Positions 3,729 through 61,571 are shown, numbered from the whole stretch's first letter. The stretch is 63,511 nt of DNA, filler included, from Reclinomonas americana ATCC 50394 (GCA_048213135.1; 11 parts of 4 records of this genome joined end to end with filler, not necessarily neighbours in it), one strand, 5' to 3'. The notes: generated by a model from the sequence alone, not told the origin. Translations and numbers: made by a program.

Positions 3729-3780
3729 CGTCGTCGNNNNNNNNNNNNNNNNNNNNNNNNNNNNNNNNNNNNNNNNNNNN

Positions 3781-3792
3781 TTAATTAATTAA
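3781..3792. other. Artificial assembly linker TTAATTAATTAA inside N runs; also at 7395, 11310, 24688, 27763, 39661, 49146, 52768, 56203 and 61616
   Basis: Identical 12-mer with stops in all six frames, always flanked by ~44 Ns. Confidence 0.97.
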
Positions 3793-3836
3793 NNNNNNNN
3801 NNNNNNNNNNNNNNNNNNNNNNNNNNNNNNNNNNNN

Positions 3837-5129: not shown

Positions 5130-7475
5130 ATGTCGTCCGCTGCCACTCATGGGAAAACAATAGGCAGCTATGTTGCGTTTGAGTATGCGTGTGAGTGAGA
5201 GTGTGTGTGTGAGAGATGAGAGGGAGAGATTGCTGTTGATGTTCTTGTACTTCCAAGGCATTGCCCTCGCACACTCTCTCCTGCTGCTGACTCTCTCTGT
5301 GTGTACAAGTGCGTGTGCGTGTGTGAGAGAGAGAGGAGAGAAGAGAGTGTGTGTGCGTGTGTTTGAAATTCATTTGAGAGGAAGTCTTTTCTCGCGCTCT
5401 CTCTTTTCCTCACACACTCACGCACACACTCTCTCACACACAGACTCTCACACTCACCAGTGCGTGTGCACACTCACGTTATTTTGCGGTTTAGAGCTCA
5501 TGATGATGATGATGTGATTGTGATTGATCTTTGACGATTCTGTGTGTTGTTTAGCAACTTGGTGATGTGCTGGGCAAAGGTGGATTTGGTACGGTGTACA
5601 AGGCGCTGCATAGGGAGACAGGGCGAGTGGTGGCCTGCAAGGTGTGTGTGCACAGAGGGGAGGGTTGGGTTGTGTCAGTTCGCCCTCCTCTCTGCGGTGC
5701 TCATCTTCCTCCTCCCTCTTCTCCTCCTCCTCGTCTTCCCTGTTCTTTGTTTCGGGTCTTTTTCTTGTTTTCATTCTTCTTGTTCACATCTCTTTTCCTC
5801 CTCCTCTACCGCCTCCTGCTCCATCTTTATCTTCTTCTCCAACTTCCTCTCCTTGTTTTTCTGTTTCTCCTCCTTCTCCTTCTTCTTCTTCTTCTTCTTC
5901 TTGTTCTTCTTCTTCAACTTCTTCTTGTTCTTCTTCTTCTTCTTCTTCTCTTATTCTTCTTCTCCTTTCTTCTTCTTCCTCTTCCTCTTCCTCCTCCACC
6001 ACCTTCTCCTGCCTCAGTGAACTGCTGGGACTGTAAGCTGTGTTCAGAGAAGCAAGTCACGACAGCAGGTAGTGAGAGAGCAGAGTATATTTGTGCAATG
6101 TTCTTGACACGCCAGTCTTGCTTCTCACTCGCCTATGATGCTGCAGGAAATCCCCATTTCCAAACTGCGCAGCGCGCAGGAACTCGAGAGCATTCAGGTC
6201 AGCATGCACTGTGTCTCTCATTCCTGTGCACCTCTGCGCTCATGTGCGTCGTGTGCAGGCCGAAATCAACCTGCTGAAGAAGCTCTCGAATCGCTACGTC
6301 GTCGGCTACCTGGAGAACATGTCGGTCGGCAACTACTTTTACATTATCATGGAGTTGCGCTGGTCTTTGTGTGATGTCAGCGACGTGGTCACCATCTAAT
6401 TTCACGGTGCACGCAGATATGTCGAGTTCGGCTCCCTGCTGGACATTGTAAAGAAGTTTGGCACCATTCCTGAAAAACTGTGTGCTCTGTACATCACGCA
6501 AGTGCTGCTCGGTCTCGAGTACCTCCACCACGAAGGTGAGTATGGTGGCAGGCATTGAGTGTGGGCGTGTGCTGCAGTGTTGATTCACATACCACCGTGT
6601 CTGCGTCTATTATGTGCACATTGACTCGCTTGCCCTCTCTACTTTGTGTCTCTTGCACCGCGATTCGTTGCCTAAGTGTGCTCGGTGTGTCTAACCTGCA
6701 CCCGTGCCTTGTGTTCTGCTTTATTTCTGATCTGTACAATTTATTTCGCCTCGGCCTTCCCACGTGTATAATCACCTTTCCCCTTCACCCTCTCTTCTCC
6801 TCTACCAGGCGTCATCCACCGCGACATCAAGGGCGCCAACATCCTCACCACCAAAACCGGTCAAGTGAAGCTGGCCGATTTCGGTGTGGCCGCGGAACTC
6901 AACGAAATCGACCCAGAGTCGGTGGTCGGCACGCCGTACTGGATGGCTCCCGAAATCATCACCCTCAATCCGCCGCAAATCACGTCGGACATTTGGAGTG
7001 TGGGCGCCACCATTGTGGAGCTGATGACGGGCAAGCCTCCGTACTTTGACCTCGCCCCGATGCAGGCGCTCTACCGCATCGTGCAAGACGAGTATCCGCC
7101 CATGCCTGAAGGCATTTCACCGGTACGGCCCGAAAGTCGGGCGGGGGAAGCGGTCGGCTCTGTATCTCACTCGTGCACACAGAATCTGCGCAACTTTCTC
7201 GAGCGGTGCTTCATCAAGGATCCCAACCTGCGACCAAAGGCTCGCGACCTGCTGAAGCATCCGTGGATTCGCCAAAACAAGGTGGAGGCGCCGCCGGCAG
7301 AGGAGTTGCGTCGCCTGTTGGAGTTGCGCCATACAGCTTTGCGACTCACGNNNNNNNNNNNNNNNNNNNNNNNNNNNNNNNNNNNNNNNNNNNNTTAATT
7401 AATTAANNNNNNNNNNNNNNNNNNNNNNNNNNNNNNNNNNNNNNNNNNNNACACGACCAACGACGAAGTAGGACG

Positions 7476-7527
<52 letters not shown>

Positions 7528-10037
7528 GAAAACAGTTGCCTTTTCATGAACTCGCAACTCACTGCGTGTGCAGGTGGTCTCTCCATGGACGAATCCGAGT
7601 CGTCAGACTCGGGAATTGGTGCAGGCGCCTCGAGCAGCTCCGTGCGACGAAGGTTCGATGCTCCACTCCGCACACCACGTCTGCGGTGTTACTGACTGCG
7701 CTCGTCGGACATTAAGTGTTTCGCAACCGCGACCCGAGCTCCTCAAATTTCGCGAGGACGAAGAGGAAGACGATTGGATCGAAGACGATGAGGTGGGTGG
7801 GAGTTCATCGACGTGCTGCTGATTTACAATTGCTGCTCACTCGAGTAACTCCAGGTGGTGGTCAAGGTGAACCCACTCCCACAACCGTCACGCGGCGGCA
7901 TCTCCGACATGGGCGACTCGGACGACGATCTGGACTTTTTCAGCGACGAGGACGACGAGCCGTTTGCCATGGTGCAGAACATTTCCAGAAAACTCGTCCC
8001 ACCCCCATCGCGAACACAACAACAGCACCAGCAGCAGCACCACGATACGGTCAAGGCAGCGAAGCCAGCCAAGGGTACTCACGCACCGTCGGCCTCGGTG
8101 GTTGCGTTCTGCGTGGGAATGCATGTCGTTCATGTGCCTGTCCCTTCTCACACCTGCTTTGCACAGCCCGGTACCGCCACCGGTATCAAGCCGCTGTTGC
8201 GTTCTAGCCGAGGCAATGGAAAGAAAGAACAGCTGCTAACATCTCCTCTCATGTGCGCAGAGCTGAACCGCAACCACCACGACCTCAGTCGCTGAGTCGA
8301 AATGCACTCAACAGTTGCGCTTCTCGTGGTTATTTGCTTTCTGCTGTGGCTGCTGATCACTCACTCGCTGGCAGTGTTTGGCGAGGCTGCGCGCAATGAC
8401 CACAGTCTGGATGCATTCCGTGAGGATGACGACGAGGATTTGTTTGGTACGGTCGACGTGCGCACTCGTCATCTTGGCACACAAGTTCACTGTGGCTCGT
8501 GCAGATTTGAATGATGGGCTGGACACCAAGGACCTGGCTGCACGTTTTCGCATGCGACAGCGCACGGTGAGCTGCTCTCCTACGCTCATTGCTTGTGAGG
8601 CTTTGTGTTTGTGTGTGTGTGACACCCTCTCATCACCAAGGTGGACGAGGAGTCGGCAGATGAGGATCCTTTCGACGACGACGACTGTTTCGTCTGTGTG
8701 CTGGTGCTGTTCTTGAGTGGAATCAACGCTAACGTGTCTCTTTGTGCTATTTCAGTTGAGGAGGATGCGCACGAGCCCAAGAGCACATTCCAGCAGCGAT
8801 TCGGCGAGCAGATCCCGCAACTGTTGAAACAGCTGACCCCCACGACTCCTGCTGAAGAAATCAAGGAGGCGTGCAGGCTGCTGGTGCGTGTAGCGCGTGT
8901 ACCTGAATCAATGCCGCGCTGTGTGTTCCGCGAGCTCATGTGACATTGCAGACGAGTATCTTCAAAGAATTCATCAACGAAAAGTTTCTGGTCACAGCGC
9001 GCAGCGGTATTGTACCGCTGCTCGACTTGCTGGAGCTCGATGACATGTATGTGGTGGAGGCTGTATATCGTCTCATTATTCAGGTTCGTTGGCCTGTGTG
9101 ATTCTGCTGTTGTTATTGTCAGTTCGTACTGATCATGCGTGGCACTCGAGCAGCTGATTGAGGGCTACAAGGAGTTCCTCACCAACATCTCATTGACTGG
9201 CGGTATTCCGCTGCTGATGAAGTTCTGTGCGCGCGGCTACCATCGCGACTTGCGTCGTCAAGCCGCTCGCTTTGCCAACGAGTTGTGCAAGGAACCGTTG
9301 CGTCCCTCCCCTTCATTCCAACCCCCCAATGCTTTCTCTCCTCCTCATAGACTCCACTCGCACAGTGAATTCATCCAGATGCTCATCGCGTGCGGTGGCA
9401 TCACGCACCTCGTCAACCTGTTGGACCACACGCAAGAGTCGTTTGAGGAGTGCCGCGAATTGGTGTACCAGGGCGTCGAGTGCATCAAGAAGATATTTGC
9501 CGCCACTCGCACCTTCAAGCGCGACTACGCCCGTCTGTTTGTGAAGGCTGGCTTGCTGCCGTCGCTGGTCACGGCGTTGCATTACACACTCGTGGAACTG
9601 CGTCGTGTGATGACTAGCGGCCGCGTGGCCGCAGGCGGTTTGACGGCTCCTCGTTTGATTGAGCGCGCCGACGACATGGCGCAGATGCTGGAGACCATTT
9701 CGCAGTACGAGGAGTACGTCAAGCAGCGATTCGCGCAGGACGCAGTGTTGCAGAGTTGAGTTTTCCGCGGGAGATTACATTGTCTTCTTTCTCTCTAACG
9801 CGCTCGCTTGTCTGCGCAGCCATTTTGGACATTTTCGGCTACCTGCCTCGCCACCTGGAGACCACCATGGTGCGAGTGGTGCGCAACCTCACCGACGACG
9901 AATCCATTCGCAACGAACTCGCACGCTTCATTCCGACCCTTGTCGAGTTCCTCTCCCGACGCGGTCCCGATCAGCTGCGCATTCGCAACACCGTCATCCA
10001 CGCCCTCTTCAATCTGTGTCGGTGGAACACGAAGAAT
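5130..10037 (+). CDS. SepA/Cdc15/Cdc7(Sp)/MAP3K-epsilon-type kinase: kinase domain, acidic linker and ARM-like region
   Basis: [68 protein letters not shown], followed by helical ARM-like exons (GGIPLLMKF..., LFNLCR). Confidence 0.9.
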
Positions 10038-10958: not shown

Positions 10959-11265
10959 CCAAACACTTGACACAAAGTCTGAATGTTCTCCGGGGCGATG
11001 AGGATCCGCTCCACCCGCACACGCTCCTCCTCCAGCCACTTGGTGATGCACTTGAGACCGTTCTCTTGCCAGCCCTTGGTGGTGGCCACCCGCAGGAAGA
11101 AGCTGACGCCCTCGTTCTCCCACAAAAAGTGATAGATTTGTGAGGAGCGCGACTGCGACACTTGGCACATGAGCGTCAACGACAACTCGGCGGCCGCCGA
11201 CCCTGAGAACTTGAAGGCGAACTCCATGAGGTGAGGCACAACGCCATACAAGAATGCGGTCTCCG
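10959..11265 (-). CDS. Internal ARM-region exon of the same SepA-like kinase on a flipped contig
   Basis: GVVPHLMEF...LWENEGVSFFL...WQENGLKCITKWL continues the SepA/Cdc15-type C-terminal region. Confidence 0.75.
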
Positions 11266-11365
11266 NNNNNNNNNNNNNNNNNNNNNNNNNNNNNNNNNNN
11301 NNNNNNNNNTTAATTAATTAANNNNNNNNNNNNNNNNNNNNNNNNNNNNNNNNNNNNNNNNNNNN

Positions 11366-11697
11366 GACCTAGGCCAGGGCATGGGCTCCGCTGTCGCAGT
11401 CCCTCGAAACCGCAAGCGTAAATATGCACTGTGTGCTCCTGCAGATTATGAGTCGGAAAACAAAGAAAAGCAGAGACGGACGATTCGAATCTGCAGATTC
11501 GAAGATGCATATGCACGCCCCCATGCTGCAGCAGCGCAGCGCAGCATCTCTGCCGTGCCCGGGCTCATCGTGCACAGTGTGCAAAACCTACTCAAGCATG
11601 CGGCCGTCGAGAAACCAGCCGGTGCAAAACAAAACTGGACAACTATGCATGCATGCATGCAAATCGAAATCGAAATCAAAGCAGCGCACACACACGT

Positions 11698-11747
<50 letters not shown>

Positions 11748-11937
11748 GCACACACACACGCACGCACGCACGCACGCACGCACGCGAATGTGTCAGATCT
11801 TACAGAATACACCCCTCATCGTCTCTGGCACTGTCACTGTCACGCGGCGAACGCGGCGATCTGCACACATGTCAGCAATCATGCCTCACGAGCCTCCCAC
11901 GTGCACGTACCCAGCGACTGTATTCGCTGACAACAGA
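11366..11937. repeat. Dispersed ~550-bp repeat, copy 2, with an internal (CA)n/(CACG)n expansion
   Basis: Similarity to 1-555. Confidence 0.95.
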
Positions 11938-12012
11938 TGACGACGCACCTGCCCATGCTCCTCCCCTTCTCACCACAGAGGGAGGCATCAAAGCACCAAC
12001 TAGTTCTCTCGT

Positions 12013-12417
12013 TTACAGATATGTTTCCGTCTCAATGGTCTTGAGTAGCCGCTCTGCAATCTCACGCACAATGACAGCCTCGTCGCGACGGAAGCTCTCC
12101 AGCAGATCGTAGAGGTCGTTGGCGGCCACAAAACGCTTCGGATCCGGGTGCGCTTGGTAAATGGCAGTCAGCAATGTCAGCAGACCCTTCTTGACAAAGG
12201 AGCGATAGTCGTCGCCATGCTGAGGAAGCAAAACCAATGAGAAGCAATCAGCACGCGTTTCCCCTTCCCGAGCAAGCTCTCACCTCTTCACACAATCGCT
12301 CCAATAGGAGCGGAACAAAGTCAGAAGCACCCAGCGCCTCGGCCACCTTGGGCGAGGCCTTGACAATGTCGACAAACGACTCGAGCATGTCCCTGAACAC
12401 GACGGCTGGGCTGTCGC
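12013..12417 (-). CDS. Terminal exons of the SepA-like kinase on a flipped contig
   Basis: ...KKGLLTLLTAIYQAHPDPKRFVAANDLYDLLESFRRDEAVIVREIAERLL matches the SepA/MAP3K-epsilon C-terminus. Stop at 12013-12015. Confidence 0.8.
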
Positions 12418-13321: not shown

Positions 13322-14225
13322 CGATGCTGACGTCAGCTCCATGCAGAACTGCTTCAACCTCGGTGGCAACAACAACGTGTGCGCTACCTGGGCTGGTCCT
13401 TTCTGCACTTGGTAAGCGCATTCATGAGACTCGTGTCGTTCGTCTCGATTTCGATATCTCATGCAAACATTCGTTGCTTTTCTTAGCCACCCGGTCAAGA
13501 ACTGCAACAACAACGGCTCATGTAACGCGGCTGGTGCTTGCGTCTGCAACGCTGGCTACGCCGGTGCCTCGTGCAACAACTGCGCCACCGACTACTACGG
13601 CCCGAACTGCGCCACCCTCTGCCAGGCCGCCGTCACCTGCAACGGCAACGGCACCTGCGACAACAACGGTGCCTGCGCGTGCACTGGCAACTACGCCGGC
13701 GCCGCTTGCAACGTGTGCAAGACCAACTACTACGGTGCGACTTGCGCCACCTTCTGCCAGGCCTCGTCGACCTGCAACGGCAACGGCTCGTGCGACAGCG
13801 CTGGCGCCTGCGTGTGCACTGGCAACTTCACTGGTGCCGCCTGCAACCAGTGCAAGCCGAACTACTTTGGTGCCTCGTGCTCCAAGTACTGCCTGGCCTC
13901 GTCGACCTGCAACGGCAACGGCTCGTGCGACGCCAGCGGCAACTGCGTGTGCAACAGCGGCTTCACTGGCGCTGCCTGCAACGTCGCCACCACCTGCACC
14001 ACCGACAGCAACTGCCTGGCCCAGTCTGTGGGTGCCAAGGCCGGCAACGGTGGCGCCATCGACGGCGGCAAGTGCGTGAGCGGTGCCTGCGTGTGCAACG
14101 CTGGCAACTCTGGCACCAACTGCCAGTGCCGCGCCGACTCGATCCTGTGCCCGGTCGCCGGCCAGGGCATCGCTGTCTTCTCCACCGTTGACGGCTCGAA
14201 GACTGGCTGCGCCAGCACCTGCTAA
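13322..14225 (+). CDS. Cys-rich EGF/laminin-EGF-like repeat protein, 5' end in gap
   Basis: Repeats of CNGNGxC...CxCxxxxxGAACNxC at a 45-aa/135-bp period. One intron near 13412-13485. Confidence 0.9.
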
Positions 14226-15056: not shown

Positions 15057-18000
15057 AGGAGTGGTGGCCAGGCGTGACGGATTCTCATTGCGCGCGCGCA
15101 CAGGCGGAGGAGTCGTCGGCAAATGGGGATGCGAATGGTGGTGGAGGTGGTGGGAAGTTCTGGATGCGAGCGCGCAAGGCGTTTGTTTCGTCGTCGTCGC
15201 TGTCGTCGTCGTCGGCGAGTGCGAGTGGAACGCAGTCGAACTTCTCCACGATGGGAACGAGCAGCGCCACGTCTCGATACAGCACCGATCTCATTCCGTA
15301 CTCGCGTCCGCCCGTCAACACAGAGGAGTCGCGGGAGAATGAGATCACGCTGTTGCGCATTCAGGTGCAGTCGTTGGAGTTGGCCAAGGCCGACATCGAG
15401 AAGGCATACACCGAACTGGCCAAGCAAAAAGCCACGCTCAATCGCAGCAAGTCGGATGTGGGGTTGGCCAATGCGCAGTTGCGCACGCAGTTGGTCGAGG
15501 AGGAGAAGAGGAATGCGGAACTGGCCGTGCGCGTGCGGGAGCTCGAGGTAGAGTCGCTCGCAGAGCAGGCCTCCCGCCCACTGCGCTGCTGCGTGGTGTT
15601 GATTGTCTCCCGTTGCAGGTGGCGCTGGCGAATGCGAATGCGGCCACGGCGGCGGCAACGGCACCAGCCGCGAGCGCATCTGCGGCCGCCGGTAGCAGTG
15701 GTGGTGCGGCTAGCCTGGCGGCGCTTCTTGGTCTGGGGCCGAGTGCAGGTGGGCAGGCCGGTGGGCAGGCCAGTGCCGATGAGTTGCTGAGATTACGCGA
15801 GGAGAACCAAGTTCCGTGTCTGTCTTTGTGAGCAGAGTGCTGTTGATTTTTAGTGCTCACTCTCGTCGTCACAGAAGCTGCAGCGTGCAATGGCCGCGGC
15901 AAAGCAGCAAGCCGACAAGCGTGTGGAGGACCTGGAGAAGCAGCACGAGCAGCGTCTGACCGAAAAGGAACAGGCGCTCTCGGAGATGCGCAACGAGCTT
16001 AGGGAAGCCAAGACCGACAATGAGAAGCTGCGCAAGGCGGTGACGCACGCCGAGGCAGTCGCCGAAGAGATTCGACAGCGCCTCCAGTCGTCGAATTCGG
16101 ACGCCGCCGCCAGTCGAACGCAGGCTCACGCGGAACTCAAGTTGCGTGCCGGCTGCAGCGGGAGTCTTTTTTCTTTGTTGTCTTCTCACACTGCGCTCAA
16201 TGTGCAGAAAAGTGCAAGATCAGCTGGCGCAAACGAATGTTATCCTGGCCAAGCGTGAGCGAGAGCTGGAGAGAATTCGTGCTCGCCACGCGCCGCTGAC
16301 GGCTGCGCGATCGCGGAGCACGTCGCGATCCAATAGTCGTCCCTCGTCGGCCAAGGTTCGTTTTATCCATCACTTACTCACACTCTCCCTTTCGGCTGAC
16401 TAACAGCGTACCACGCACACACACAGCCTCAAGCCACTGCGTCGTCGGCCATGGACGTGACAGATATTTCGAGCGACGAAGGCGACGTGGCCAGCATTAA
16501 TAATGGCGACGTGGTCGATTTCGGAGCGCTGTTGGATGACGACGAGGATCCGGAGATTCGCGAGATTGCTCGTCTGGTGAATGTGCAATCGCGCATGGCG
16601 GCAGAGATTGGCCCCGACTTCCTCCCGCCACACATCTATGAGATCGAGGGTCACAACGGGAGCGGCCTCAGTTACCACACCACACGGCGCGGATCACCGC
16701 CACTGGCGCGACTGATTGTGTCGCCACCGAATGGCACTGGCACAGACGGCAGCGGTGCGAGCAACAGCACACCGGCTTCCCACAGCAGCGCCTTGTCACC
16801 GCCGTCCATGGCCGGACGCGGCGGCATTTCCACGTCGTCGCTGATGCTGAGTCCGCCGTCGGAGGGTGAGAAATCGAGTGCCTCGAGTGCCTCGTCGGGA
16901 CGTGGCTCGGCGCACAAGTACGAGGTCATTGAGGCCGGTGGCGAGACCGTCAGCGTGCCTGTACGACCGCTGCCGGTGCGACGTGCTTTTTCGGCCCGCA
17001 ATGTCTCACCGACTCGCCTCTTCACCAACACCGCCGCCGCCAATGGTATTATCGGCGGCAAGCAGGCGGCTGCGCTGACACGGCGCGAGAGCGCGCTGAT
17101 TGCTGCCTACGGACCCCCTGTCGCTGCATCGCGAACCAACAGTTCCAAGTCAACCAGCACACGGAAAGGTGCCACCCTTCTCCCCGCTCTCCTTTTCTGC
17201 TCGTGTCGCTGACCGCGCCTCGCCAGATTCAACCAGCAGTGATCGATCGTCGTCAACGGGCTCACGGCCGCGGTCCGCTCAGTCGCGAGAGCGCGAGCGC
17301 CACGGCAGCTTGCCTGTGAATCAGGTGGCGGACGTGCCCGCCGGCACGCGTGCCTTGCAGCGGAGAGTCAGCAGCGCCACGGTGCGCTCGTCGGGTGTTC
17401 CGAGTGTGGCCACGGGCGGCACATCAAGTGGTTCGGCGCAGTCCATTCTCTCGAGAGCTCGCGAGGCTGCAGCTTCGGTGCAGACCACGCATGCGCCGCT
17501 GGATGCGCCGACAGTGGAGCCCATTACGCTGCGCACCAGTGTAAATGACCTGGTGCGCATCACCAGCGTGGTGTCGGAATGGTCGCAGAAACGAACAGCG
17601 TCGGTGTTGCAGGCGTTGACTTTGAGAGTTGCGTCGAATCGGTGTGTGGGGCATGGCACAGCGATGACTGACTCTTTGTGTGCAGGGTATCCACACTGTT
17701 AATGACGTGTTGGAGCAGTGGCGGCAGCTGCAGACGTATGGCTTGCGACGCAAAGTTCTGCGTAGTTTGCGTGTGTCGATTGTGGACCGCCTGGACGAAA
17801 AATCGCTGGAGCGTCTGCTTCCGCACCTTGCCATGTTAAGCCCAGATGGCGGCGGGGAATCGGGAGAAGAATGAAACCTCTGGTAGTGGGTGTTACCGAC
17901 GAGGATTTACCGGATGCTTTTGTTTTCTCTCTCTGCCGATATTCGGATGGCTCACAAGGCGCAGGAGTTTTATTGTACACGCTGGAGGGCTGTCATCGCA

Positions 18001-18090: not shown

Positions 18091-19875
18091 TCACTCATGC
18101 TGGGTGCACTGACAAGGGTGGGAGGTAGACGCACAGTCTTCGCATTCGAGGCTGTCGCCGATGAGTTGCGGAGCGACGGCTGCGGCTGCGCGTGCCGGCG
18201 CCGGTGGGGCTGCAGCGGGAGCTGGGCGGGCACGAGGCCTCGGAGCTGGTGGGTGGGAAGCTGACGCACGGCGTCGGGGTGCTGGTGCGGCGACTGGTCG
18301 AACGCGAGGCACCGGCAGCGGATAGCGTACCATGACGACCGTGCTGCTGACGACGTCTGCGCGTGGAGGCGCATCGTCGCTTTCTTCGGCATCATCTTCT
18401 TCCATGGCCTGTTGCTGCTGCTCACGCTCGAGATGCTGTTGTCTCCGTTGCTGACGACGTTCCTCTGCGCTGCTGACTGCGACGGCTCGCGCGTGCTGTG
18501 CACGACAGTGTCAAGACAGTGCCAGCGCGATCTCTGTGTCTCCTCATCGGTATGATTCTCACCTCTGCATCCACATCACTCTGACCGACGCACGGGCGCG
18601 GCGGCTGTCCACGCGGGCGCGGTTTGGAGAGAACCGACTCCGGCACCAGGTTCATTCGGCAGAGCGGACAAGTGGCATGCCGAGAGTCGACCCACCTGCA
18701 GCACACATTGGTCAGTCGCCGCGCTCATCTCTCTGCAGTGGCACGGCACGCACATGTCGAGACACTCCTGTCGAGTGGAGAGAAAGAGGAGTCAGCAATT
18801 AGGTTGGTGCAGGTGCGCTTTTGCTTGTCATTACCTCGTGGAAGCGGTGCAGGCAGCGTGTCAGCATCACTGTCTCTCCCTTTTCCATGTCGCACAGGCA
18901 CACGGAGCACTGATGATCCGCTTCGCCACTGCTAATGTCGCCTTGCGTGTACCGCGTGACAAACTGTTCGATCTCGGTCTGTATGTGCATGTATCAGTAT
19001 CAATGCTCTACATGTTGTCGAATGCGTAACGTACGTACGACACCGCACCTTGATGGGATCACGTTTCGGCTGCACACGAGCCGCTCCACTGTTCCTTGCT
19101 GGCTGCGCCACCAATTCGACTGCGTCCTCCTCCACCTCCATCGGCACTTCCAGCATTCGTCGTGGATCAACCTCCATTTCCAGTTGCAACTGCTGAGGTC
19201 GCCACGACTGCGCCGCCCGCCTCTCTTGCTGCTCACGATTGCGACGGCGAGCGGCCGATGCCGAGCGTGCGGCAGCCTCGAACGACAAGCGCGACAGCCA
19301 TGCATCCACACGCGTTCGCAGTCGCAACAGGCGTCCGATGGTGTACGACTGCACGCTCGGTAAGCAGTGGGTGGGAGACGGAGGAGGAAGGGAGGGAGGA
19401 AGGAAGGGAGGGGAAAGAGAAAATAGAGGAGACCGCGCCTGCGTGGCAAAGTGATGACAGACGCACCATCGGCATGTACGACCCGTATCGACTGTTGGAC
19501 CGCTGGCACACATCCAGCGCCTCCGTCACGTCGGTGCTCAGCTCGCGAATCGGCGCAATACCCAGTTGCTTGAGGTGAGCAAGCGGCACGACCACCTATG
19601 CATCGCCTCAGCACCACGATCACGAGTTGGAAAATTTAAAGAGAGGAATGGTCACGCAACACTCTGCAAATGCTCGTTGAACTCGTTCTCAGTCATCTGG
19701 CACTCCAACGGCGGCTCCTGTTGGCCCTCTTGCAGGTGCGCTGGCTGGAGGTGCCACAAGCGGCGCTACGGGATTGGTGCGTGAGGGAAGAAGACATCGA
19801 TGCTATTTTCGCACACGATCCATGATCGATCATGCAGCGCACCAGCAAGCGGATCGGAAGCTCTTCTACGTCCAT
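18091..19875 (-). CDS. RING-H2 finger protein (putative E3 ligase)
   Basis: Spliced CSVC...LTRCLHRFHE|ECLDM|WVDSRHATCPLC. Confidence 0.85.
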
Positions 19876-37717: not shown

Positions 37718-39158
37718 TCACAAGCCGGCCACCGCACGGACGATGTCACTCAGTTCGGAGGCCAGTTGTTGCGCCGTCGGGCGTCGCACTGCTCGGCCGT
37801 CCACGCATCTGCGATGTTGCAGGCGTCAGCATTGTTGGTCACGAGCTCGTGCGCACCAACTTCCAGTATACCTCACACCCAGGCGCACAATGCGCTCGCA
37901 CACTTCACTCGGCCACGAGCGACCGCTCTGCGAGTCGGCCAGTTGCACCGTTGCGGCGCGCATGGCCTGCGCATCGCCGCTCTCCTCCACCTCCTCCAAC
38001 GAGTACACTCGTCGATGCACCTCGGTGATCGGGAGCCCGCTGAACACGTGCAGGAGAACGAGGCCGAGAGAGAACACGTCCGCACTCGGACGCAGCAGCA
38101 CGGCGTGGTCACGTATGGCCTTGGGATCCATGTACTTGCGGTCGACACCAAGTACCGACTGAAAACACAGAATCAATAGAGGATTGAGGAACTCGATACA
38201 CAATTACAGCATGAGTGCGGCCACTCACTCCCTCCGAGCGGAACCAGTGTGCCATTCCCCAGCCAACCAGGACGGCCTTCCCATTGTGATCAAAGAGGAC
38301 ATTGGCCGGATTCACATTTCCATGGATGACTGCGGTGCGGGGATGAGCCGAAAGGAATAAAGACAGCACATCCACACCAATTGCAACCCACACATACCAT
38401 TCTAATTCCACCATGCAACAGAAACATGAAAATGAACAATCACAGGTGAGTACACAGCGTGCACGCAAGGCGCGTAGCACTTTGACTCACGAGTCTGCAT
38501 CATCGGCAAAATGTAAGGGAAAGCGCACAACCCCGATCGTGGAGAAGAATCACGCAACTGGTGCAGCGCAGCCAAAGTCTCGGCACATCGCAACATGCAC
38601 GACATTCTGGCCTCCACGGACATTGCTGGAAGATCGAGCTCCAGGCTGTGTCCGCTGCAGAAGCAATGCGGAGTGAGTTGATACCGCAGCGACAGTCTCC
38701 CTCGCACCAACAATGCTCGGCAGCCCCTCTTCTCTCTCCGCTCCTCGCCAACCTATCGCAACAGCAATTGCTGGGCTGCCTGCACTGCTCATCTCTCACC
38801 CCTCTTTGTCAACGCACCTCCTGGCCTCAAACACAACGCATCGCTTGCCGTCGGCCAACTCCGCGTACCCGATCAACGGTACAACTCCAGCGACAGCCCA
38901 GCTCACCGCCTTCAGCTTCTTCACCTGTCAAGTTCAAACAAGCGCGCGCCATCAGCAAGACACCTCTACCTACCACCACTACTCTTCTCCTCTAACCTCC
39001 TCGGAAAACGATTCAATGGACCACGGCAGCGCGCCGTCAAACACGACCATCGCCACATCTCGCCCGGCCCAGCGCCCTCGAAACACCACATTGGCTCCAT
39101 CCACGCCGCCGAGCCGATTTGCAAAGTTGTTGCTCATCGTTACCACTTGATCCTCAGT
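37718..39158 (-). CDS. IRAK/Pelle/RLK-like kinase-fold protein lacking catalytic residues (pseudokinase)
   Basis: TMSNNFANRLG..VVFRG..VAMV, VVPLIGY, IHGNVNPANVL, VGWGMA, YMDP, ADVFSLGLVLL, C...RRPT. Confidence 0.8.
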
Positions 39159-44777: not shown

Positions 44778-45076
44778 GTGACGGCGGCGGTGCAACACTT
44801 TTTTTGGTCGTCGTCGTCGTCGTCATTGTATGTGTTATTGAACTCCTCTCCTTGATGTGTTGTGTATACATGCTAACCCGCCAATTCCGTTTGTTTCNNN
44901 NNNNNNNNNNNNNNNNNNNNNNNNNNNNNNNNNNNNNNNNNNNNNNNNNNNNNNTTGTTTTTTTCACTTCTATTAACCCCCCACATCGCCCCTTCCCTTC
45001 GAAAGAAAAAAGTGGGGAAACGAGGGGAAGCGAGGACGCCCAGGCGCCTGCCAACTCGCACCTCCTCCGCATCTGC

Positions 45077-48000
45077 TTACTCCTCTTGTCGTTGCCGAGG
45101 TGCTTGCTGAATAATGTCATCCACACGCAAAATCATTTCGGCCGCCTCCTCGGCAGCGATGAGCACGTGGCTCTTGACCTTGTACGACTCGGTGATGCCC
45201 AGCTCACGCACGTCGCCGACCACGCCGGTCCTCATGTCTGCATCAGAAAAGAGAATGAGCATCACAGACGGCCTTGCTTTCTTTCTTGCTCGCTCACACC
45301 AACACCAACGTACCGAGACCCGCCGTCTTCTTGCCCTGGTAGTGCTGCGCCGTCAAGGTGGTCACCAGGTCGGCGGCATCGTAACCCGCATTCTCGGCAA
45401 TGATGGTGGGGATCTGTCGCAGGGCACTGGCAAAGGCGTTCATCGCCAGCTGCTTCTTGCCCGTGGTCTTCTTGGCGGCCTCCTCCACGGCGCGCGCCAT
45501 GAGCGACTCCTGCATCGGGAAAAAGAGAAGAGAGTGAGTGGATTGCGAAAAAGGGGTAGTGAGAAAAGAGCACAAACGCACCGAGCAGCCGCCACCGAGC
45601 ACCGTCTTGGTCTCCTGTGTCGTCTGCGAGACAACGCAGAGGGCGTCGTGCAACGAGCGCTCGGCCTCGTCCAGAATCTGCTTGTTGGCGCCGCGGAGCA
45701 CCACTGTGCACGCCGCACCCGAGGCCACACCGCTGAAGCGGATCAACTGCAACGAATCACGAGTCAGGCACAGGGNNNNNNNNNNNNNNNNNNNNNNNNN
45801 NNNNNNNNNNNNNNNNNNNNNNNNNNNNNNNNNNNNNNNNNNNNNNNNNNNNNNNNNNNNNNNNNNNNNNNNNNNNNNNNNGAAAGATGGAGAGGAGGAG
45901 ATGAACAAGGTGGAAGGGAAGACCATCACAATGGAGTCGTCTTTCTAGAGCATTATAGTGTGCGAATAAAACAGCCACACACTTGATAGAATGGAAGAGA
46001 GAAGGAACACAAACAAGAAAGAAAGCGTACACACTCAAACTAAGACGGCATTGTCTGTTCCAATCACCACAGTGGACAGAAAACAAAGCCACAAAGCCGC
46101 GAACAACGAATGCACAGGCAGAGACAACGCGCAGCTGCTCAAGGAGAATCTGCGCGAACGGAGTTCTGCGTGCCTGATACAATCACTACGACAGAAAAAC
46201 GAAAAGAAAAAGCACACGAATAACGTATGCACTCAAGAAACAACTGTGCGTGTGTGTGAAAGAGAACACACCACATAGACACTCATCGACAACAAGCAGA
46301 GGATAACGAGCCATGCCAAACACGCCATAGACACAAAGAGGGCCATCTCAGTGCGCGTGTATCTGTTGCGAGACATATCACAGAAACTCGACAAACAAGG
46401 AGAGAGCACAACATGGACAACGAGAAAGCTAACAAGCAACAGACCAGAAAGGGCTGTGTGAATGTCTCTCTCTCTCTCTCTCTCTCGCTGTTTTCCTTCC
46501 ACCCTCTCTCTCTCTTTTCCTCCCACCCTCTCTCCCTCTCTCTCTTTTCCTCCCACCCTNNNNNNNNNNNNNNNNNNNNCTCTCCCTTCCTTCCTTTCCC
46601 GTTACGCACCCAAGAACGAATCACGCAGGTTGCCACCGGTCTTCTTGATAATGTGAATCGAGTCGAGGTTCGTGGAGCCCTTGAGGCGGAGCACGGCGTT
46701 GACCGCCAGCTGCGCAAAGTACTCCTTGTCGTGGTGCAGCACCTTGGAGGAGAGCGTGGTGCGCGCAATGTTCAGCAGATCCTCGCGGAACAGCTCCGGA
46801 TCGCCACCGTGATCCTCGGCCGACTCGTCGAGCGCCTCCAGCGCCACATCCGCCGCCATGCGGTAGCCCTGCACAATGGTCTGCGGGTGCACCCTCAACA
46901 GCAGCAGCTTCTCGGCCTCGCGCAGCAGCTCGCCCGTCAGCACGCACACCGACGTCGTGCCGTCGCCCACCTCCTGATCCTGAGTCTTGCTAATGTCTGN
47001 NNNNNNNNNNNNNNNNNNNNNNNNNNNNNNNNNNNNNNNNCGCGAGATCCATGGTTAGTGGTGAAGGGCGGGGAGAGAGGGAGAGGGAAGAGGGAAGAGG
47101 GAGAGGGAAGAGGGAAGAGGGAGAGGGAGAGGGAAGGAGAACCGCAGGATCAAGGGTCAAGGGACACGGTGCGTGTCTCCTCTTGCTGTATCCTCACTCT
47201 CTCTGTGTGTGCGAGGTGCGTGAGAGAGAAGAAGAGGAAGAAAAAAGAAGAACCAGAGGATCAAGGGTCAGGAGTGAAGGTCGGTGTCTCCTCTTGCTTT
47301 CTCCCTCTCCACGCCCTCTGCCTTCCTCTCTCACTCTCTCAGTGCGCGAGATGATGAAGAAGAGAGGAAGCGAGGAAGAAGAACAAAGGATCAAGGGTCA
47401 AGCACATGCTTTCTTTCTCTCTCTCTCTAAGTGCGTGAGAGAGAGAGAAGAGATCCAGATAGAGAGAGAAAGCAAGAGCATGCCCTTGATCCTCTTCCTC
47501 GCTTCCTCTCTTTCTTCTCCCTCCTCTCCTCTCCAGCTCTCCGCCTTCTCTTCTCTCCCTCTCTCTCAGTGCGTGATAGAGAGTAGAGGAAGAAGACCAA
47601 CAAGGATCAAGGGTCTCCTCTCCTTCTCTCTCCTCCATTTCCCCCTTCTCCCCCTCTTTGCCGCCCGGGGTGTGACTCACCGACGAGGACCTTGGCGGCG
47701 GCATTGTCGAGCGGGAGCGACTTGAGAATGGTGGCTCCATCATTGGTGACCATGACCGAGCCACTGCCCATCGACTGAATGATCTTGTCCATGCCCTTCG
47801 GGCCCAACGTCGTCTTCACAACGTCGGCCACAGCCATGGCGCCCACAATGTTGCTCTGAAAACAAGCAAAAGAGAGAGAGAAGAGAGTGAGTGCACATGG
47901 CCACCAAAGCACACAAGACAACTGCTCACACACACGACACACGCAGTGAGCACTGATGCAGCGCACAGTGACGAGTTGCAACGCGCGTGTGCGTGCGTGC

Positions 48001-51418: not shown

Positions 51419-54400
51419 ATGGCGTCCGCGGTGGCCGCCGGTGACGATGAACCCATCATCACTCCGCCACAGCAGCGACCAAAGGATCGATACACGCGGG
51501 TTGAGTAATCCACAGAGACGCAGACAGACAGACAGACAGACACACTGATCACTCTCTCGCACGTATGTGTGTGTCACCTCTGCCACCACACTGGCATTGC
51601 GCGTCTCTCTGTGCACGCGCGTGTGTGTGTGTGTTTCGTCCCAGTTGATGGCTGATCGCACTCGTTTGCACTTGGGCACGCTTCCTCATTCCCATTCTCT
51701 TGTCTCTCTCACGCACATGTCTCTGTCTCTCTCTCTCTCTCATGTGTTCGAGAGACAAGCACATGCGCACAAAGAAGCGGCTAGTTGCCCGAGTGCGCGC
51801 GCGCGCTTGAATGGTTTTTCTCTTGGTGCTTTACAAGGGCGGCCATCTTCCACCGCCAAACCTTGTTTCTTTTGTGTGCTCTTCTGCTTCTCTGTGAATG
51901 CACGCCACCACTCTATCCCACACTGAGTCGCACGCACATGTGTGTTTTGCGTTCGTGTCTCACATACCACCGAAAGAGACTTGAGGGCTTTTTCCGTTGC
52001 TCTCACACGCGTGACTCTGACACGCTCTCTCTGCTTGTGCGCGTGTGTGTGCGTCTACAGTTGGGGCAGATTGGCGTTGGCGCATACAAGATTGTGTACG
52101 AGGCCGTCAACCACGACACAGGCACGCAAGTGTGTTGGAACGAGCTCAAAATCCCGCACGGCGCTCCTCCGGTCAGTCACACTCTCTCACACACACACGC
52201 ACTTGCTTGCCTCTCTCTCTCACACGCGTCTCTTCTTGCTTGTGTGCACACACAGGACGACCGTCGCAAGATCTTGCGCGAGGTGGGCATCCTGCAGCGC
52301 TTGAATCACGAGCATGTGATTCCGATCTTGGACTGCTGGGAGGACCCTGCCAATGGCGAGCTGGTGTTCATCACAGAGGTCTGTGTGTGTGTCTTGCTTG
52401 CTTATGCAGTGTGTGCGTCTCAAACGAGCGTGTGTGTGTAACAGCTGATGACCTCGGGAACGCTGAAAGAGTTGCGTCTATATTGGAGCGGAATATGGGA
52501 AGCTTTTCACTGTGTGTTGGAGACGCATGTGTGTGTCTGTGTGCCTGTTTTGTGCGTGTGCGTTCCTCCGATGCCCGCTTCGCGTGTCGCCGCCGGTTGT
52601 TCAATTCAACTCCTTTGGCATCTGTGTGTGTGTCGGTCACCCGTTTGTTTTGTGTGTTGTTTTTTTTTCGGGACGGCACTCTTTGTGCACGTGCATCTGC
52701 ATATGCGTGTGTGTGGCGCGGCANNNNNNNNNNNNNNNNNNNNNNNNNNNNNNNNNNNNNNNNNNNNTTAATTAATTAANNNNNNNNNNNNNNNNNNNNN
52801 NNNNNNNNNNNNNNNNNNNNNNNTCGGGGTACGGAACGCGTTCCAGGGCCGCCGGCTTCAGGCCCTCAATGACCTTTTTGAAAATGGCGGCCATGTTGGT
52901 GCACTCGCTGAACGGGTACTCGCCCGTCGCCATCTCCAACACCACCATGCCAAAGGCGTAAACATCCACCTTGGTGGTGTACCGCTCGTTGTACAGCTCG
53001 GGGGCCATGAACTCGGGAGTGCCTGTCGCAAAAATGGCAATGAGATTCGCAATCTACGAAGGCCTTTTCACGGTGCAAGATACTCACCAATGACAGACAT
53101 GGCGTAGCGCTTCTCCTTCATCATGTACGACAGGCCGAGATCGCCAATCTTCAGCTCGCCGCGGGTGCCATTCACGAACAGGTTGTCTGCGCGACGAGTG
53201 AGACATCATTCTCGTGACCTGCACGCATGAAAAGTGCAACACGCACCGGCTTTGATGTCGCGATGAATGATTGGTGGTTCGTGGTTGTGCAGGTACGAGA
53301 GGCCATGCAGAATCTGAATGCACCAGTTCTTGATGATCTTCAGCTTGACCTTCTTCACGCGCTTCAGATATCTGGGTGGCGCGGGAGTTAGTCACCGGAC
53401 GATACAGCAGCGCGCAAGAGACAGGAATGGAAAGCATACAACTGCTTCCACCCCGCGGCTACTGATGCGCACTCTCTGATTTTGCTGCTCGGGAGAAGGA
53501 GAGGGAAGAGGGAGAGGGAAGAGGGAGACGAAGCAGACACGGGACACTCACTGTATGCACAGTCTGACAATTACCAATCGTCACAGATCCTCTCTCCTCT
53601 CTCCTCTTTCTCCCCTCTCCTCTCCCTCTCTGCACCTGNNNNNNNNNNNNNNNNNNNNNNNNNNNNNNNNNNNNNNNNNNNNNNNNNNNNNNNNNNNNNN
53701 NNNNNNNNNNNNNNNNNNNNNNNNNNNNNNNNNNNNNNNNNNNNNNNNNNNNNNNNNNNNNNNNNNNNNNNNNNNNNNNNNNNNNNNNNNNNNNNNNNNN
53801 NNNNNNNNNNNNNNNNNNNNNNNNNNNNNNNNNNNNNNNNNNNNNNNNNNNNNNNNNNNNNNNNNNNNNNNNNNNNNNNNNNNNNNNNNNNNNNNNNNNN
53901 NNNNNNNNNNNNNNNNNNNNNNNNNNNNNNNNNNNNNNNNNNNNNNNNNNNNNNNNNNNNNNNNNNNNNNNNNNNNNNNNNNNNNNNNNNNNNNNNNNNN
54001 NNNNNNNNNNNNNNNNNNNNNNNNNNNNNNNNNNNNNNNNNNNNNNNNNNNNNNNNNNNNNNNNNNNNNNNNNNNNNNNNNNNNNNNNNNNNNNNNNNNN
54101 NNNNNNNNNNNNNNNNNNNNNNNNNNNNNNNNNNNNNNNNNNNNNNNNNNNNNNNNNNNNNNNNNNNNNNNNNNNNNNNNNNNNNNNNNNNNNNNNNNNN
54201 NNTCTGCGCGAATTCATCGAGTTGTGCTTGCTGCCGGAGGAGCAGAGATGGGACGCTGATCAGCTGCTGAACCATCCCTTCTTGGCCGACCCCGAGAGTG
54301 ACGACGGCCGCACCATTGTGTTGGAAGGTGGGTTGTCGGGATCATTATTTTGACGCACCTGGCATTTCGCTCACTCTGTTTGTTTTCGCGTGCAGCCGAC

Positions 54401-59370: not shown

Positions 59371-61571
59371 TTACTGATTCTTGCACTCTTGCTTCTCGGG
59401 CGCCTTGAACTGGAAGCCACCCTTCTTGCCACCACCAGAGCCAGCACCGCCTTCACCGTCGTCCTTCTTGGACGGTGGTGGACCGGCCTTGCCGCCACGC
59501 TTGCCCTGCTTGCCCTTCGGAGGCTCGTCATCGCTGCTCTCATCGTCATCGTCGTCGTCGTCATCATCATCATCGTCGCCGCCGCCACCCATCATGCCAC
59601 CCTGCATCAGCTTCAACAACTGCAGCACGTAGCAAGCAAATGGTAAGCGACCAAAGAGGAAAGGGGATCAGTAGCGAAAAGGTGCGAACGCAACTGTCTC
59701 CATGTCCATCTTGTCGTCGTCGGGGCCGGCAAAGTAGTCGACGGCCTTCGGGATGATGCTGTCGCGGAAGAACATGCCAATCTCCAAATCCTCCTGTATC
59801 CTGGCGTGCTTCTGCAGAGGGGAGTGTGAGAAGGCAGCACGCTACTGCGTACTAAATAAAACACCCATTCACGCAACTCCGTCGTCGGAGCCAGAGCCGT
59901 CGTCATCATCATCGTCGTCGTCCTCGTCGTCGCTGTCGTCGAGCGCAGGCGGGTCGAAAAAGTTGAAGAACGAGTCGACCTTGACGTACTGGTCCACCGG
60001 TGCACCGCCACGTCCGCCGCCACGTCCGCCGCGGCCACCACGGCCTCCGCGACGACCAGCCTTGCCTTGGATGCGCTTCTTGGTCAAATCCTGGCCCTTC
60101 CAGTGAATGGGGCAGCTGTTTTCAACAACAACAAGTGAGATACAAACACCAAACAAGATACGGGCACGCTACGTTTCTCTCTCTCTCTCTCTCACCCCTT
60201 GACGTCACGCAGCACTGGTGACTCCTTCTCTTCCGGCACAAAGTTGTACTCCTTGGTCAGCACAGTGTCGGAGAAGAACTCGTTCTCGTTGAAGTGGAAC
60301 TCCAGAGTGAAATCCTGCGCACAACAATAAAACGACATGAGTAACACAGCTAAAATCCCTGCTTTGCAGAAAAAGACGATAGCAACGCACCCGCTGTCCG
60401 GGGACGGAGATGGCGCGAATGTCGCGCAGCGAGCGGAGAGCATCCAGATCGCGCTCCTCAATCAGCTGCTCAAACTCCTCCACATTCATCAGCACACTCA
60501 ACCAGAACTCGGGCACACCGCGGGGCGCGGCAGCCAGCTGCTCGGCAGTCGGAGCCTCGGGCCGTTCTGGTCTGCCCTCATCCTCCTCGTCGCCCTCCTC
60601 CTTCTCCTTCTCACCCTCCTCCTCGTCGTCGTCCTCCTCGGGCTTCGCCTTTTGCGACTCGGGCACCTCAAAGTCCGCATCCGCCGGCTCCACCTCGCCC
60701 GTCACAATGGCCGAGCGGCGAGCAAACAGCGGCGCCATCAGCGCGTGGTACTTGTCCTCCACCGCCTGCAGCTCCTCGTGCTTGCGCAGAATCAAGTCGT
60801 CGACCTGCAGCTGCAACGTCTCCAGCGCCGCAATGCGGTACTTGACGGCCGCCGGCGTCTCCTCGTCGTCGTCCACGTCACCCTCCTGCATGCGGCCCTC
60901 GCCAGACGACGAGCCCGCACCAGCACCACCACGCGACAGCGCGGCCAGCAGCGCCTCCGCCGAGGTGGCCTTGGACAGTGTCCGATCTGCCATGGCCGAC
61001 GACACTGGCGTGTTGGCCGGAGTCGTAATCGACGGTTGCATGCGCGACGCCACCGCCTGCAGACTCTCCGTCACCGTCAGACCTATAAATAGGGGGGTGA
61101 GTGAAAAAAGAAAACAAAGTGGGCCATGTGCACATGCACATGCACGCACATATATTTACAACACTTCCCCCCCGACTTGGAGAACACGCAAAAGAAAGAG
61201 CGCGGCGAATGATGCACACAGCAGAACGCACGACAGGCAGACCATGAGGCAGAGGCAAACAAAACAGATGCGACCAAATGCTCGAACGGGGTTCAAGTCT
61301 GACAGTGAAACTGACCCCCAAAACACGCCGGCGCACACAAAGACACACGCGGAGAGGAAGAGAGAGACAGCAAAGAGAGAGAGAGAGACACACACAGAGG
61401 GAGAGATGAACAAGCAAGTCAAAAGAGAGAGCTGCTCGGAGCCATTTCGCACACGCTCTCTCCTCCTCTCTCACACACACACTCTCTCTCCCTGTTCTCC
61501 TCTCCCTTCCCCACTCACCAAACGCCGGCGACGCAGGCGACTCTGGCACCGCAATGCCCAGCGAGCCCTGT
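59371..61571 (-). CDS. NAP1: Nucleosome assembly protein 1; 5' end in gap
   Basis: GVPEFW, FTLEFHFNENEFF, LTKEY, CPIHWK, DSFFNFF, IIPKAVDYF, acidic tracts and a terminal CKNQ CaaX-like motif. Confidence 0.95.

Follow-up and report, generated by a model that had tools for sequence, protein, structure and literature searches.

We analyzed a stretch of 63,511 bases from the protist Reclinomonas americana ATCC 50394 (in the following called the window). It consists of 31 contigs of a fragmented eukaryotic assembly, joined by N runs and by N44-TTAATTAATTAA-N44 linkers, which lie at 3737-3836, 7351-7450, 11266-11365 and at eight other places. The part displayed covers a gene encoding a Cdc15/SepH/MAP3K-epsilon-like kinase (5130..10017, plus strand), with Pfam matches for a kinase domain (Pkinase) and an armadillo region (Arm). 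This gene spans two contigs across the linker at 7351-7450 and contains at least 18 short introns, which begin with two different classes of 5′ splice sites (donors). The normal class carries a G at the fifth intron position (+5G). The other class, here called shifted, is defined by T at +3, G at +6 and no G at +5. An earlier note on this DNA had proposed that the class follows the last exon base (position -1) and that one frame of recognition underlies both. It described the kinase gene, under the name SepA, as mixing the two types and listed nine donor types for it. All nine are present, including T|GTTGCGT at both 5172 and 8196, and both classes do occur in the gene, but the introns listed were incomplete.

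To follow up these proposals, introns were predicted throughout the window with a gene finder. A fully motif-blind version, allowing any GT and any AG at a penalty of -8, yielded after strand filtering only 14 +5G, 5 shifted and 26 other introns. Because these were too few, donor and acceptor signals were added. The resulting finder used window-trained codon log-odds, GT...AG introns, a length prior, an acceptor matrix covering intron positions -22..-3 and, as donor score, a two-class mixture over +3..+8 only; exon bases including -1 never entered the donor score. With the better strand kept per locus, it returned 32 gene pieces and 171 introns. One of these touches a contig edge and was left out, yielding 170 scorable introns. 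We further defined a high-confidence subset of 65 introns (46 +5G, 14 shifted, 5 other), which are 50-130 nucleotides (nt) long, end in a YAG acceptor, have a coding score >0 in both flanking exons and lead to a stop or a frameshift when read through. In a separate rule-based pass, an equal flat bonus was given to both classes and the middle bases of the donor were left unscored.

The mixture fit over +3..+8 separated one class with the pattern GT-G(.64)-[C.36/T.34]-G(.87)-T(.59), comprising 82% of the donors, from a second with GT-T(.92)-G(.72)-C(.85)-G(.91)-T(.74), comprising 18%. The second class is the first one with its T-G-C-G-T block placed one base downstream, because positions +3..+7 of the shifted matrix equal +2..+6 of the normal matrix, both having been fitted without exon bases. 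The intron-side consensus thus recurs with G at +6 and U at +7, while +5 is without G. Written as octamers, the consensus sequences are A-G-G-T-G-C-G-T for the normal and A-G-T-T-G-C-G-T for the shifted class, one base apart; in both, the first GT follows directly after the cut. Shifted donors account for 28 of the 170 predicted introns (about 17%) and for 14 of 65 in the high-confidence subset (22-23%); the normal class makes up about 80%.

The base at -1 differed strongly between the classes. Among the 123 +5G donors (consensus GTG[C/T]GT), it was A in 15, C in 22, G in 70 and T in 16 cases, compared to A14, C6, G1 and T7 among the 28 shifted donors (consensus GTTGCGT); the 19 other donors showed A3, C7, G5 and T4. 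Between +5G and shifted donors, Fisher's test gave p = 7.3e-8 for G at -1 and p = 3.3e-5 for A at -1. In the high-confidence subset, G preceded 37/46 +5G but 0/14 shifted donors (A8 C2 G0 T4; p = 4.7e-8), and in a still stricter subset of 31 introns it preceded 22/23 +5G donors, with A5 and T1 before the six shifted ones. The rule-based pass gave 63/115 versus 2/23 (p = 4.8e-5). Restricting the shifted class to the core GTTG[C/A]G donors, with a false donor at 12316 (see below) removed, left 21 sites with A11, T5, C4 and G1 (p = 5.4e-6). We therefore confirmed two donor classes in the window and a strong association of class membership with the -1 base.

These numbers also bear on the claims that prompted the analysis. 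The 28 shifted donors collected earlier (A16, T7, C5, plus two exceptions after G) are closely reproduced by a finder blind to -1, which again arrived at 28, and the statement that most +5G donors follow G holds, as does the association sought by tabulating the -1 base against +5G and +6G. The exceptions listed were found as well. Canonical donors after a base other than G, all on the minus strand, are T|GTGCGT near 18751, C|GTGCGT at 35335, A|GTGAGT at 38228 and C|GTGAGT at 38490; G|GTTnnG donors, on the plus strand, are G|GTTGCGT at 8101 and G|GTTGAGT at 51500. The excess of A before shifted donors had been said to mirror the A at -2 of normal donors, and the shifted -1 position indeed takes the normal -2 preference (A 0.57 at shifted -1 and 0.50 at normal -2, high-confidence). 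Scoring the exon bases of shifted donors under the normal-class matrix moved by one base gave a likelihood gain of 16.7 nats for all and of 23.9 nats for high-confidence introns, nearly all of it coming from -1. Two further claims fared less well. The shared heptamer does align the classes, but a common G-K-T-n-n-G-Y frame fits only those +5G donors that are preceded by G (57% of all, 80% of high-confidence). The two middle bases, taken to be degenerate, are instead constrained to GC: even when left unscored, +4 was G in 15/23 and +5 was C in 18/23 shifted donors. This constraint is tighter than in the normal class (+4G.72-.93 and +5C.85, versus +3G.61-.64 and +4C.36).

In the known trade-off between -1G and +5G, there are two donor classes, one depending on U5 and the exon and the other on U6 and the intron. 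The classes found here resemble it in being told apart by the last exon base and +5. The trade-off (see also PMC8283771) expects more -1G where +5G is lacking. Here, the opposite was observed, because the shifted donors lack both G's, with G at -1 in only 1/28, in agreement with the earlier view that the two patterns differ. Within the +5G class, tests of -1G against +3G, +6T and the full hexamer showed no compensation (p = 0.26 to 0.85).

Could the bias at -1 follow from codon usage? A is scarce at third codon positions, making up 2-10% of them in seven reading frames with Pfam support and 19% in an eighth frame that lacks a Pfam match. Given phase and codon position, 4.7 shifted donors would be expected with A at -1, and 14 were observed (p = 5.9e-5); for G, 9.2 were expected and 1 observed (p = 2.2e-4). 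Among the phase-0 shifted introns, A stood at -1 in 7/14, compared to 9% A at third codon positions (p = 8e-5). Hence, A at -1 of shifted donors is under selection. Since the codon score of the finder works against A-ending phase-0 sites, the estimated enrichment is conservative.

We then compared donors with unused copies of their motif. Both strands together contain 183 copies of GTT-N-[ACT]-G-Y, 27 of them predicted donors and 156 unused decoys. A precedes 52% of the donors versus 24% of the decoys, and G precedes 4% versus 19% (29/156). The contrast is clear for A. The exact heptamer GTTGCGT occurs 22 times in the window, versus 11.7 +/- 3.3 after shuffling, and 1/100 shuffles reached 22. 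Of these copies, 14 coincide with predicted coding-strand donors, and homology adds the one at 5172 as the fifteenth. Several of the 25 unused GTTGCG[C/T] copies are likely true donors overlooked by the finder; those at 5172, 34540, 38558, 22467 and 39271 are coding-strand copies located at the edges of genes or within predicted introns.

The kinase gene allowed us to check individual junctions, for which the spliced model was aligned to full-length homologs, 20 for the kinase domain and 16 for the armadillo region (Table 1). All six junctions in the kinase domain, two of them shifted, are exact relative to the 20 homologs, and the sole gap column nearby results from an insertion in one homolog. 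At the protein level, the predicted cut directly before GTT was confirmed at 5172, 6354 and 9755, and at 9297 to within one residue: three residues downstream of junction 9296/9366 the alignment shows a gap of one residue, and the intron, if retained, would add 23 residues present in no homolog. The junction 8686/8756 lies in an acidic low-complexity stretch that is ungapped in most homologs and is compatible with a cut before GTT. A cut after the G instead, AG|TT, would require that the acceptor moves by one base as well and would leave the intron with two non-canonical ends. For the donor at 5172 we rejected it, since it would yield E where the 20 homologs have Q, N, S or I. At 6354, a synonymous codon is possible and the AG|TT product is the same, so the protein data do not discriminate there.

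Table 1 Donors of both classes in the kinase gene, and one shifted donor in a nucleosome-assembly-protein (NAP) gene
Class	Donor	Position	Strand	Intron	Junction and reading frame
shifted	T|GTTGCGT	5172..5178	+	5172-5554, 383 nt	GSY|QLGD (5171/5555), exact vs 20 homologs
normal	G|GTGTGT	5642..5647	+	5642-6146, 505 nt	exact vs 20 homologs
normal	G|GTCAGC	6198..6203	+		exact vs 20 homologs
shifted	A|GTTGCGC	6354..6360	+	6354-6416, 63 nt	IIM(E)|YVE (6353/6417), gap-free within 4 residues, 20/20 homologs; in-frame stop in intron
normal	G|GTGAGT	6536..6541	+		exact vs 20 homologs
normal	G|GTACGG	7123..7128	+		exact vs 20 homologs
shifted type after G	G|GTTGCGT	8101..8107	+	66 nt	predicted; no in-frame stop and length a multiple of 3, so not frame-forced; region not conserved; sole G exception in automated set
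shifted	T|GTTGCGT	8196..8202	+	65 nt	read-through gives frameshift
shifted	A|GTTGCGC	8314..8320	+	61 nt	read-through gives frameshift; no frame-compatible +5G alternative within 60 nt
shifted	T|GTTTCGT	8687..8693	+	69 nt	no frame-compatible alternative GT of any kind
normal	G|GTGCGT	8884..8889	+		ungapped in 16 homologs
normal (+3 T but +5 G)	G|GTTCGT	9084..9089	+		ungapped in 15/16 homologs
shifted	C|GTTGCGT	9297..9303	+	69 nt	flanks contiguous in homolog alignment save one gap
shifted	A|GTTGAGT	9755..9761	+	65 nt	9754/9820, gap-free, 16/16 homologs; read-through gives stop and frameshift
shifted	A|GTTGCGT	59871..59877	-		NAP gene; in-frame stop in intron, no +5G alternative

Some further observations concern the same gene. 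The closest named relative of one of its exons is the MAP3K-epsilon protein of Andalucia godoyi (76% identity). A near-relative search with a kinase exon returned only fragments of 58-186 residues with a best identity of 70%, and no protein near-identical to the gene product was found in the searched protein collection, so that collection lacks a close relative of the source organism. The gene's C-terminal portion is encoded on the other strand (11800-12417, minus), hence at least one contig is flipped relative to the gene start at 5130; another piece may be located at 10959-11265 (minus). The two long first introns, noted together with the segment 7478-7573, are rich in (GT)n, (GA)n and (CTT)n microsatellites; the majority of the window's introns measure merely 56-76 nt. 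For one intron, two frame-compatible models exist. The finder chose 7642-7738 (97 nt, donor C|GTGCGA, GAG acceptor), and the alternative 7653-7716 (64 nt, donor G|GTTCGA, CTGAC branch-like motif, AAG acceptor) appears more typical by eye. Both have +5G, and the choice leaves the class counts unaffected and changes the -1 base.

Across the window, removal is obligatory for 21/28 shifted introns because of an in-frame stop or a frame-shifting length. No frame-compatible +5G donor exists within 60 nt for 14/28, even when any AG within 60 nt of the acceptor is allowed, and 4/28 have no alternative GT whatsoever. Predicted shifted donors outside the kinase gene include those at 16141, 26698, 54973, 59694 and 59877. 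The exons flanking the shifted donor in the NAP gene match positions 174-235 and 239-265 of the Pfam NAP profile. Alignments to NAP1L1 structures in PDB show both exons in order; the junction falls into a variable acidic loop, where the fit is approximate only. For the shifted donor at 26698, a search with the CDC20 exon brought up no CDC20 ortholog to compare with, the best 150 matches being giant multi-WD40 proteins. At 38495-38621 (minus), the predicted model has a 4-nt micro-exon with an intron on either side, and an A|GTTGCGT at 38558 lies exactly there, which suggests a different gene structure with one more shifted donor.

Apart from their donors, the shifted introns are ordinary. Their median length is 64.5 nt, compared to 69 nt for +5G introns, C occupies acceptor position -3 (CAG) in 26/28 and 105/123, respectively, and the branch-like motif CTVAY occurs within 45 nt of the 3′ end in 23/28 and 70/123. 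In shifted introns, this motif lies at a median of 16 nt from the 3′ end, in agreement with the majority class. With blastn-short, no mutual similarity among the 28 shifted introns was detected beyond the donor. An introner or repeat origin was thus ruled out, as introns without shared sequence are not copies of a mobile intron. U12-type introns are characterized by [A/G]TATCCTT as donor and by a branch site resembling TCCTTAAC near the acceptor. They are similar to the shifted introns in that a minority of introns has a second, tightly conserved donor consensus. However, we rejected a U12-type identity, since 0/28 shifted donors match [A/G]TATCCTT, the donor is GTTGCGT, and the branch-like motif, its distance to the acceptor and the CAG acceptor are those of the majority.

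What might read the displaced block? We suggest that the donor-recognizing machinery binds the same block in both classes and that, in the shifted class, this block is one base further from the cut. The reader would most likely be the 5′ end of the U1 snRNA (small nuclear RNA). In the shifted register, U1 C9 would pair with +1G, U10 with -1A, and C4 and A3 with +6G and +7U, while C8 would face +2U as a tolerated mismatch. The cut would be set later, at the GU, by the catalytic core, and the contact of U6 with the downstream GU at +6/+7 instead of +5/+6 would have to bridge one extra base. Thus, we infer U1, and then U6, as the readers of the shifted block. This arrangement would correspond to the shifted register of Roca and Krainer 2009, employed here as a routine alternative and not as a rarity. 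That the one-base downstream displacement of the recognition block is this published register in routine use is the reading towards which we lean, with modest confidence. The proposal made earlier, that recognition is anchored on a G in the U1 '-1' slot and that cleavage slides to whichever G begins a GU, is essentially the same published mechanism, and as a whole it is partly supported.

The pairing itself was evaluated by nearest-neighbor energies for the standard U1 5′ end AUACUUACCUG (the unmodified oligonucleotide U1-1 in Table 2 of PMC4856993), which may differ from the U1 of this organism. The +5G donors had means of -4.62 kcal/mol in the canonical and -0.16 kcal/mol in the shifted register, and the canonical register was better in 119/123. 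For the shifted donors, the means were -0.09 and -0.54 kcal/mol. The shifted register was better in 13/28 and the canonical in 1/28, and 14/28 tied at zero. The comparison of both registers, suggested before, hence agrees with a shift in its direction, but the difference is small. Pairing of shifted donors is weak because the mismatches of +2U with C8 and of +5C with U5 leave two-base helices. Recognition would then depend largely on proteins of the U1 particle, unless the U1 of this organism, or a variant of it, is non-standard. The preference for GC at the two middle positions, which is stronger in the shifted class, is not accounted for by standard U1 either.

As a first alternative, the GTT class could be read by a U1-type snRNA variant of its own, with a 5′ end complementary to A-G-U-U-G-C-G-U, so that the two classes would have separate readers. 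Such a variant could carry a changed base where +1G normally pairs, as at position 8, or its 5′ end could be the complement of AGUUGCGU. The tighter consensus of the shifted donors and their almost absent pairing with standard U1 in either register would suit it, and variant U1 genes are known in other organisms (excerpts of PMC3561869 and PMC10870369). A single flexible U1 is simpler and has experimental precedent, and acceptor, branch-like motif and intron length are alike in both classes. On balance, we consider a variant U1 unlikely.

A second alternative assumes the normal register with a bulge. GTTGCGT can be read as GTGCGT plus one T, which would be bulged at +2/+3 while U1 pairing at -1, +1 and +2 remains unchanged. 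Insertion of a single intronic T is free of reading-frame cost, and the U6 stage must accommodate an extra base in any case. Bulged U1 registers were reportedly treated by Roca et al. in 2012. Bulge registers and asymmetric loops in human donors are documented by Tan et al. 2016 (excerpts of PMC4856993) and are similar to the present case in that one base seems to be inserted between +2 and +5. They keep the normal exon-side pairing, however, whereas the preference at -1 moves from G to A here. A bulge leaves -1 paired with C9 of U1, and G should then stay favored at this position as in normal donors (57-80% G). Instead, G is at -1 in 1/28 shifted donors (0/14 high-confidence) versus 70/123 normal ones, and A is three-fold over expectation. 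The preference for A fits a one-base shift of the block and does not fit a bulged T, which makes this alternative quite improbable.

Least of all do we expect the shifted donors to be an artifact, miscalled by eye or by the finder with a -1 bias stemming from the composition around GTTGCG: one call was false, 7/28 are not forced by stop or frame, 14/28 have some +5G alternative within 60 nt, unused GTTGCG[C/T] copies seldom follow G too, and the introns are predicted, yet homology fixes three cuts before GTT, 21/28 are forced, -1 was unscored and the codon score disfavors A at -1 in phase 0, A is about twice as frequent before donors as before decoys, and 14/22 exact GTTGCGT copies are predicted coding-strand donors in addition to 5172.

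Returning to a routine shifted register read by U1, several observations weigh against it. The scale is small, with one 63.5-kb window and an imperfect set of predicted introns. The U1 energies of the shifted donors are near zero in both registers and support the shift only weakly. No snRNA gene was found in the window by Rfam at gathering thresholds, and at E <= 1 only weak matches resembling microRNA (miRNA) hairpins appeared. On the exon side, positions -2 and -3 were uninformative (+0.5 and -1.8 nats). The contrast between donors and decoys is modest for G, and the unused copies of the narrow motif GTTGCG[C/T] follow G in only 1/25. Finally, the intron predicted from 12316 would delete 6-8 residues kept by homologs. 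This predicted shifted donor, T|GTTCCGC (12310..12316, minus), was rejected as false, the true donor being G|GTGAGA 33 nt downstream. The rarer variants GTTCCG, GTTTCG and GTTGTG are consequently less trustworthy than GTTGCG.

For comparison with human splice sites, we rely on excerpts of the cited papers. The shifted register of Roca and Krainer 2009, as described in PMC4856993, PMC9311317 and PMC11162779, was shown experimentally for atypical sites in human cells, with U1 pairing one base downstream and the cut at GU. The donors described here share with these sites the U1-complementary block one base downstream, the cut at GU, G at +6 and U at +7. They also favor A at -1, as in the 'Shifted +1' test oligonucleotide, which reads ACA/GUCAAGUAUA (Table 2 of PMC4856993). 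According to PMC11162779, U1 defines the region only roughly, U5 and U6 fix the cut, and all non-canonical U1 registers together amount to ~1.5% of human 5′ splice sites. In contrast to these rare sites, a single shifted class comprises the 28/170 predicted and 14/65 high-confidence introns here. In the excerpted part of PMC11162779, the STAT3 tandem donor is called the first evidence of a non-canonical U6 register. Similar to our shifted class, its distance from the cut to the U6-paired GU is one base off the norm. At STAT3, however, the GU is one base closer (+4/+5) and a single site is concerned, whereas in the present introns it is more distant by one base (+6/+7), throughout the class. 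The present donors further differ from human shifted-register sites in having a tight GTTGCGT consensus of their own and weak predicted pairing with standard U1, and in being known from sequence alone.

A literature search on shifted registers and on GTTNNGT and GTTGCGT donors revealed no lineage with frequent shifted donors among the matches listed; nothing was returned for GTTNNGT, and the entries listed for GTTGCGT concerned primers or sites of no relevance here. The mechanism is already published for rare human sites, and the frequency of shifted donors here (about 17-23%) and the sharp A|GTTGCGT consensus appear to be new.

Several other features of the window were noted. A dispersed repeat of ~250-270 bases opens two contigs (1-270 and 11366-11620, plus); its first ~140 aligned columns are nearly identical, and the mean column identity is 81% over an alignment of 472 columns. 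Long hairpin-forming inverted repeats at 53490-53631 and 47342-47529 gave sub-threshold matches to unrelated miRNA families on both strands and are probably just palindromic repeats. A gene for a CCT/TCP-1 chaperonin subunit extends over several contigs (45062-47852, minus), with positions 1-49, 51-178, 325-378 and 382-443 of Pfam Cpn60_TCP1 on separate exons. The exon 13428-14222 (plus) encodes repeated EGF, laminin-EGF and Delta/Serrate-ligand-like domains, which is unusual for a protist whose best kinase match is from a jakobid.

In humans, the shifted U1 register is a curiosity that concerns between a few dozen and a few hundred sites, each of which had to be proved separately. If about one sixth of the introns use it here with a sharp consensus, they would provide a natural large sample for studying cut-site choice that does not depend on U1 pairing and the way in which U6 accommodates an additional base. 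For annotation, splice models trained on GTNNGT would miss these donors or misplace them by one base, and this would break predicted reading frames in this organism and any relatives. A more far-reaching possibility, which we regard as doubtful at present, is that this deep-branching protist has a genome-wide two-register system in which ~1/5-1/6 of the introns are spliced with their U1 and U6 helices displaced by one base, or by a dedicated U1 variant reading A|GUUGCGU. In that case, cut position and register of the snRNA helices would be decoupled as a matter of routine, and the shifted introns would constitute a distinct, heritable class of major-type introns instead of scattered weak sites.

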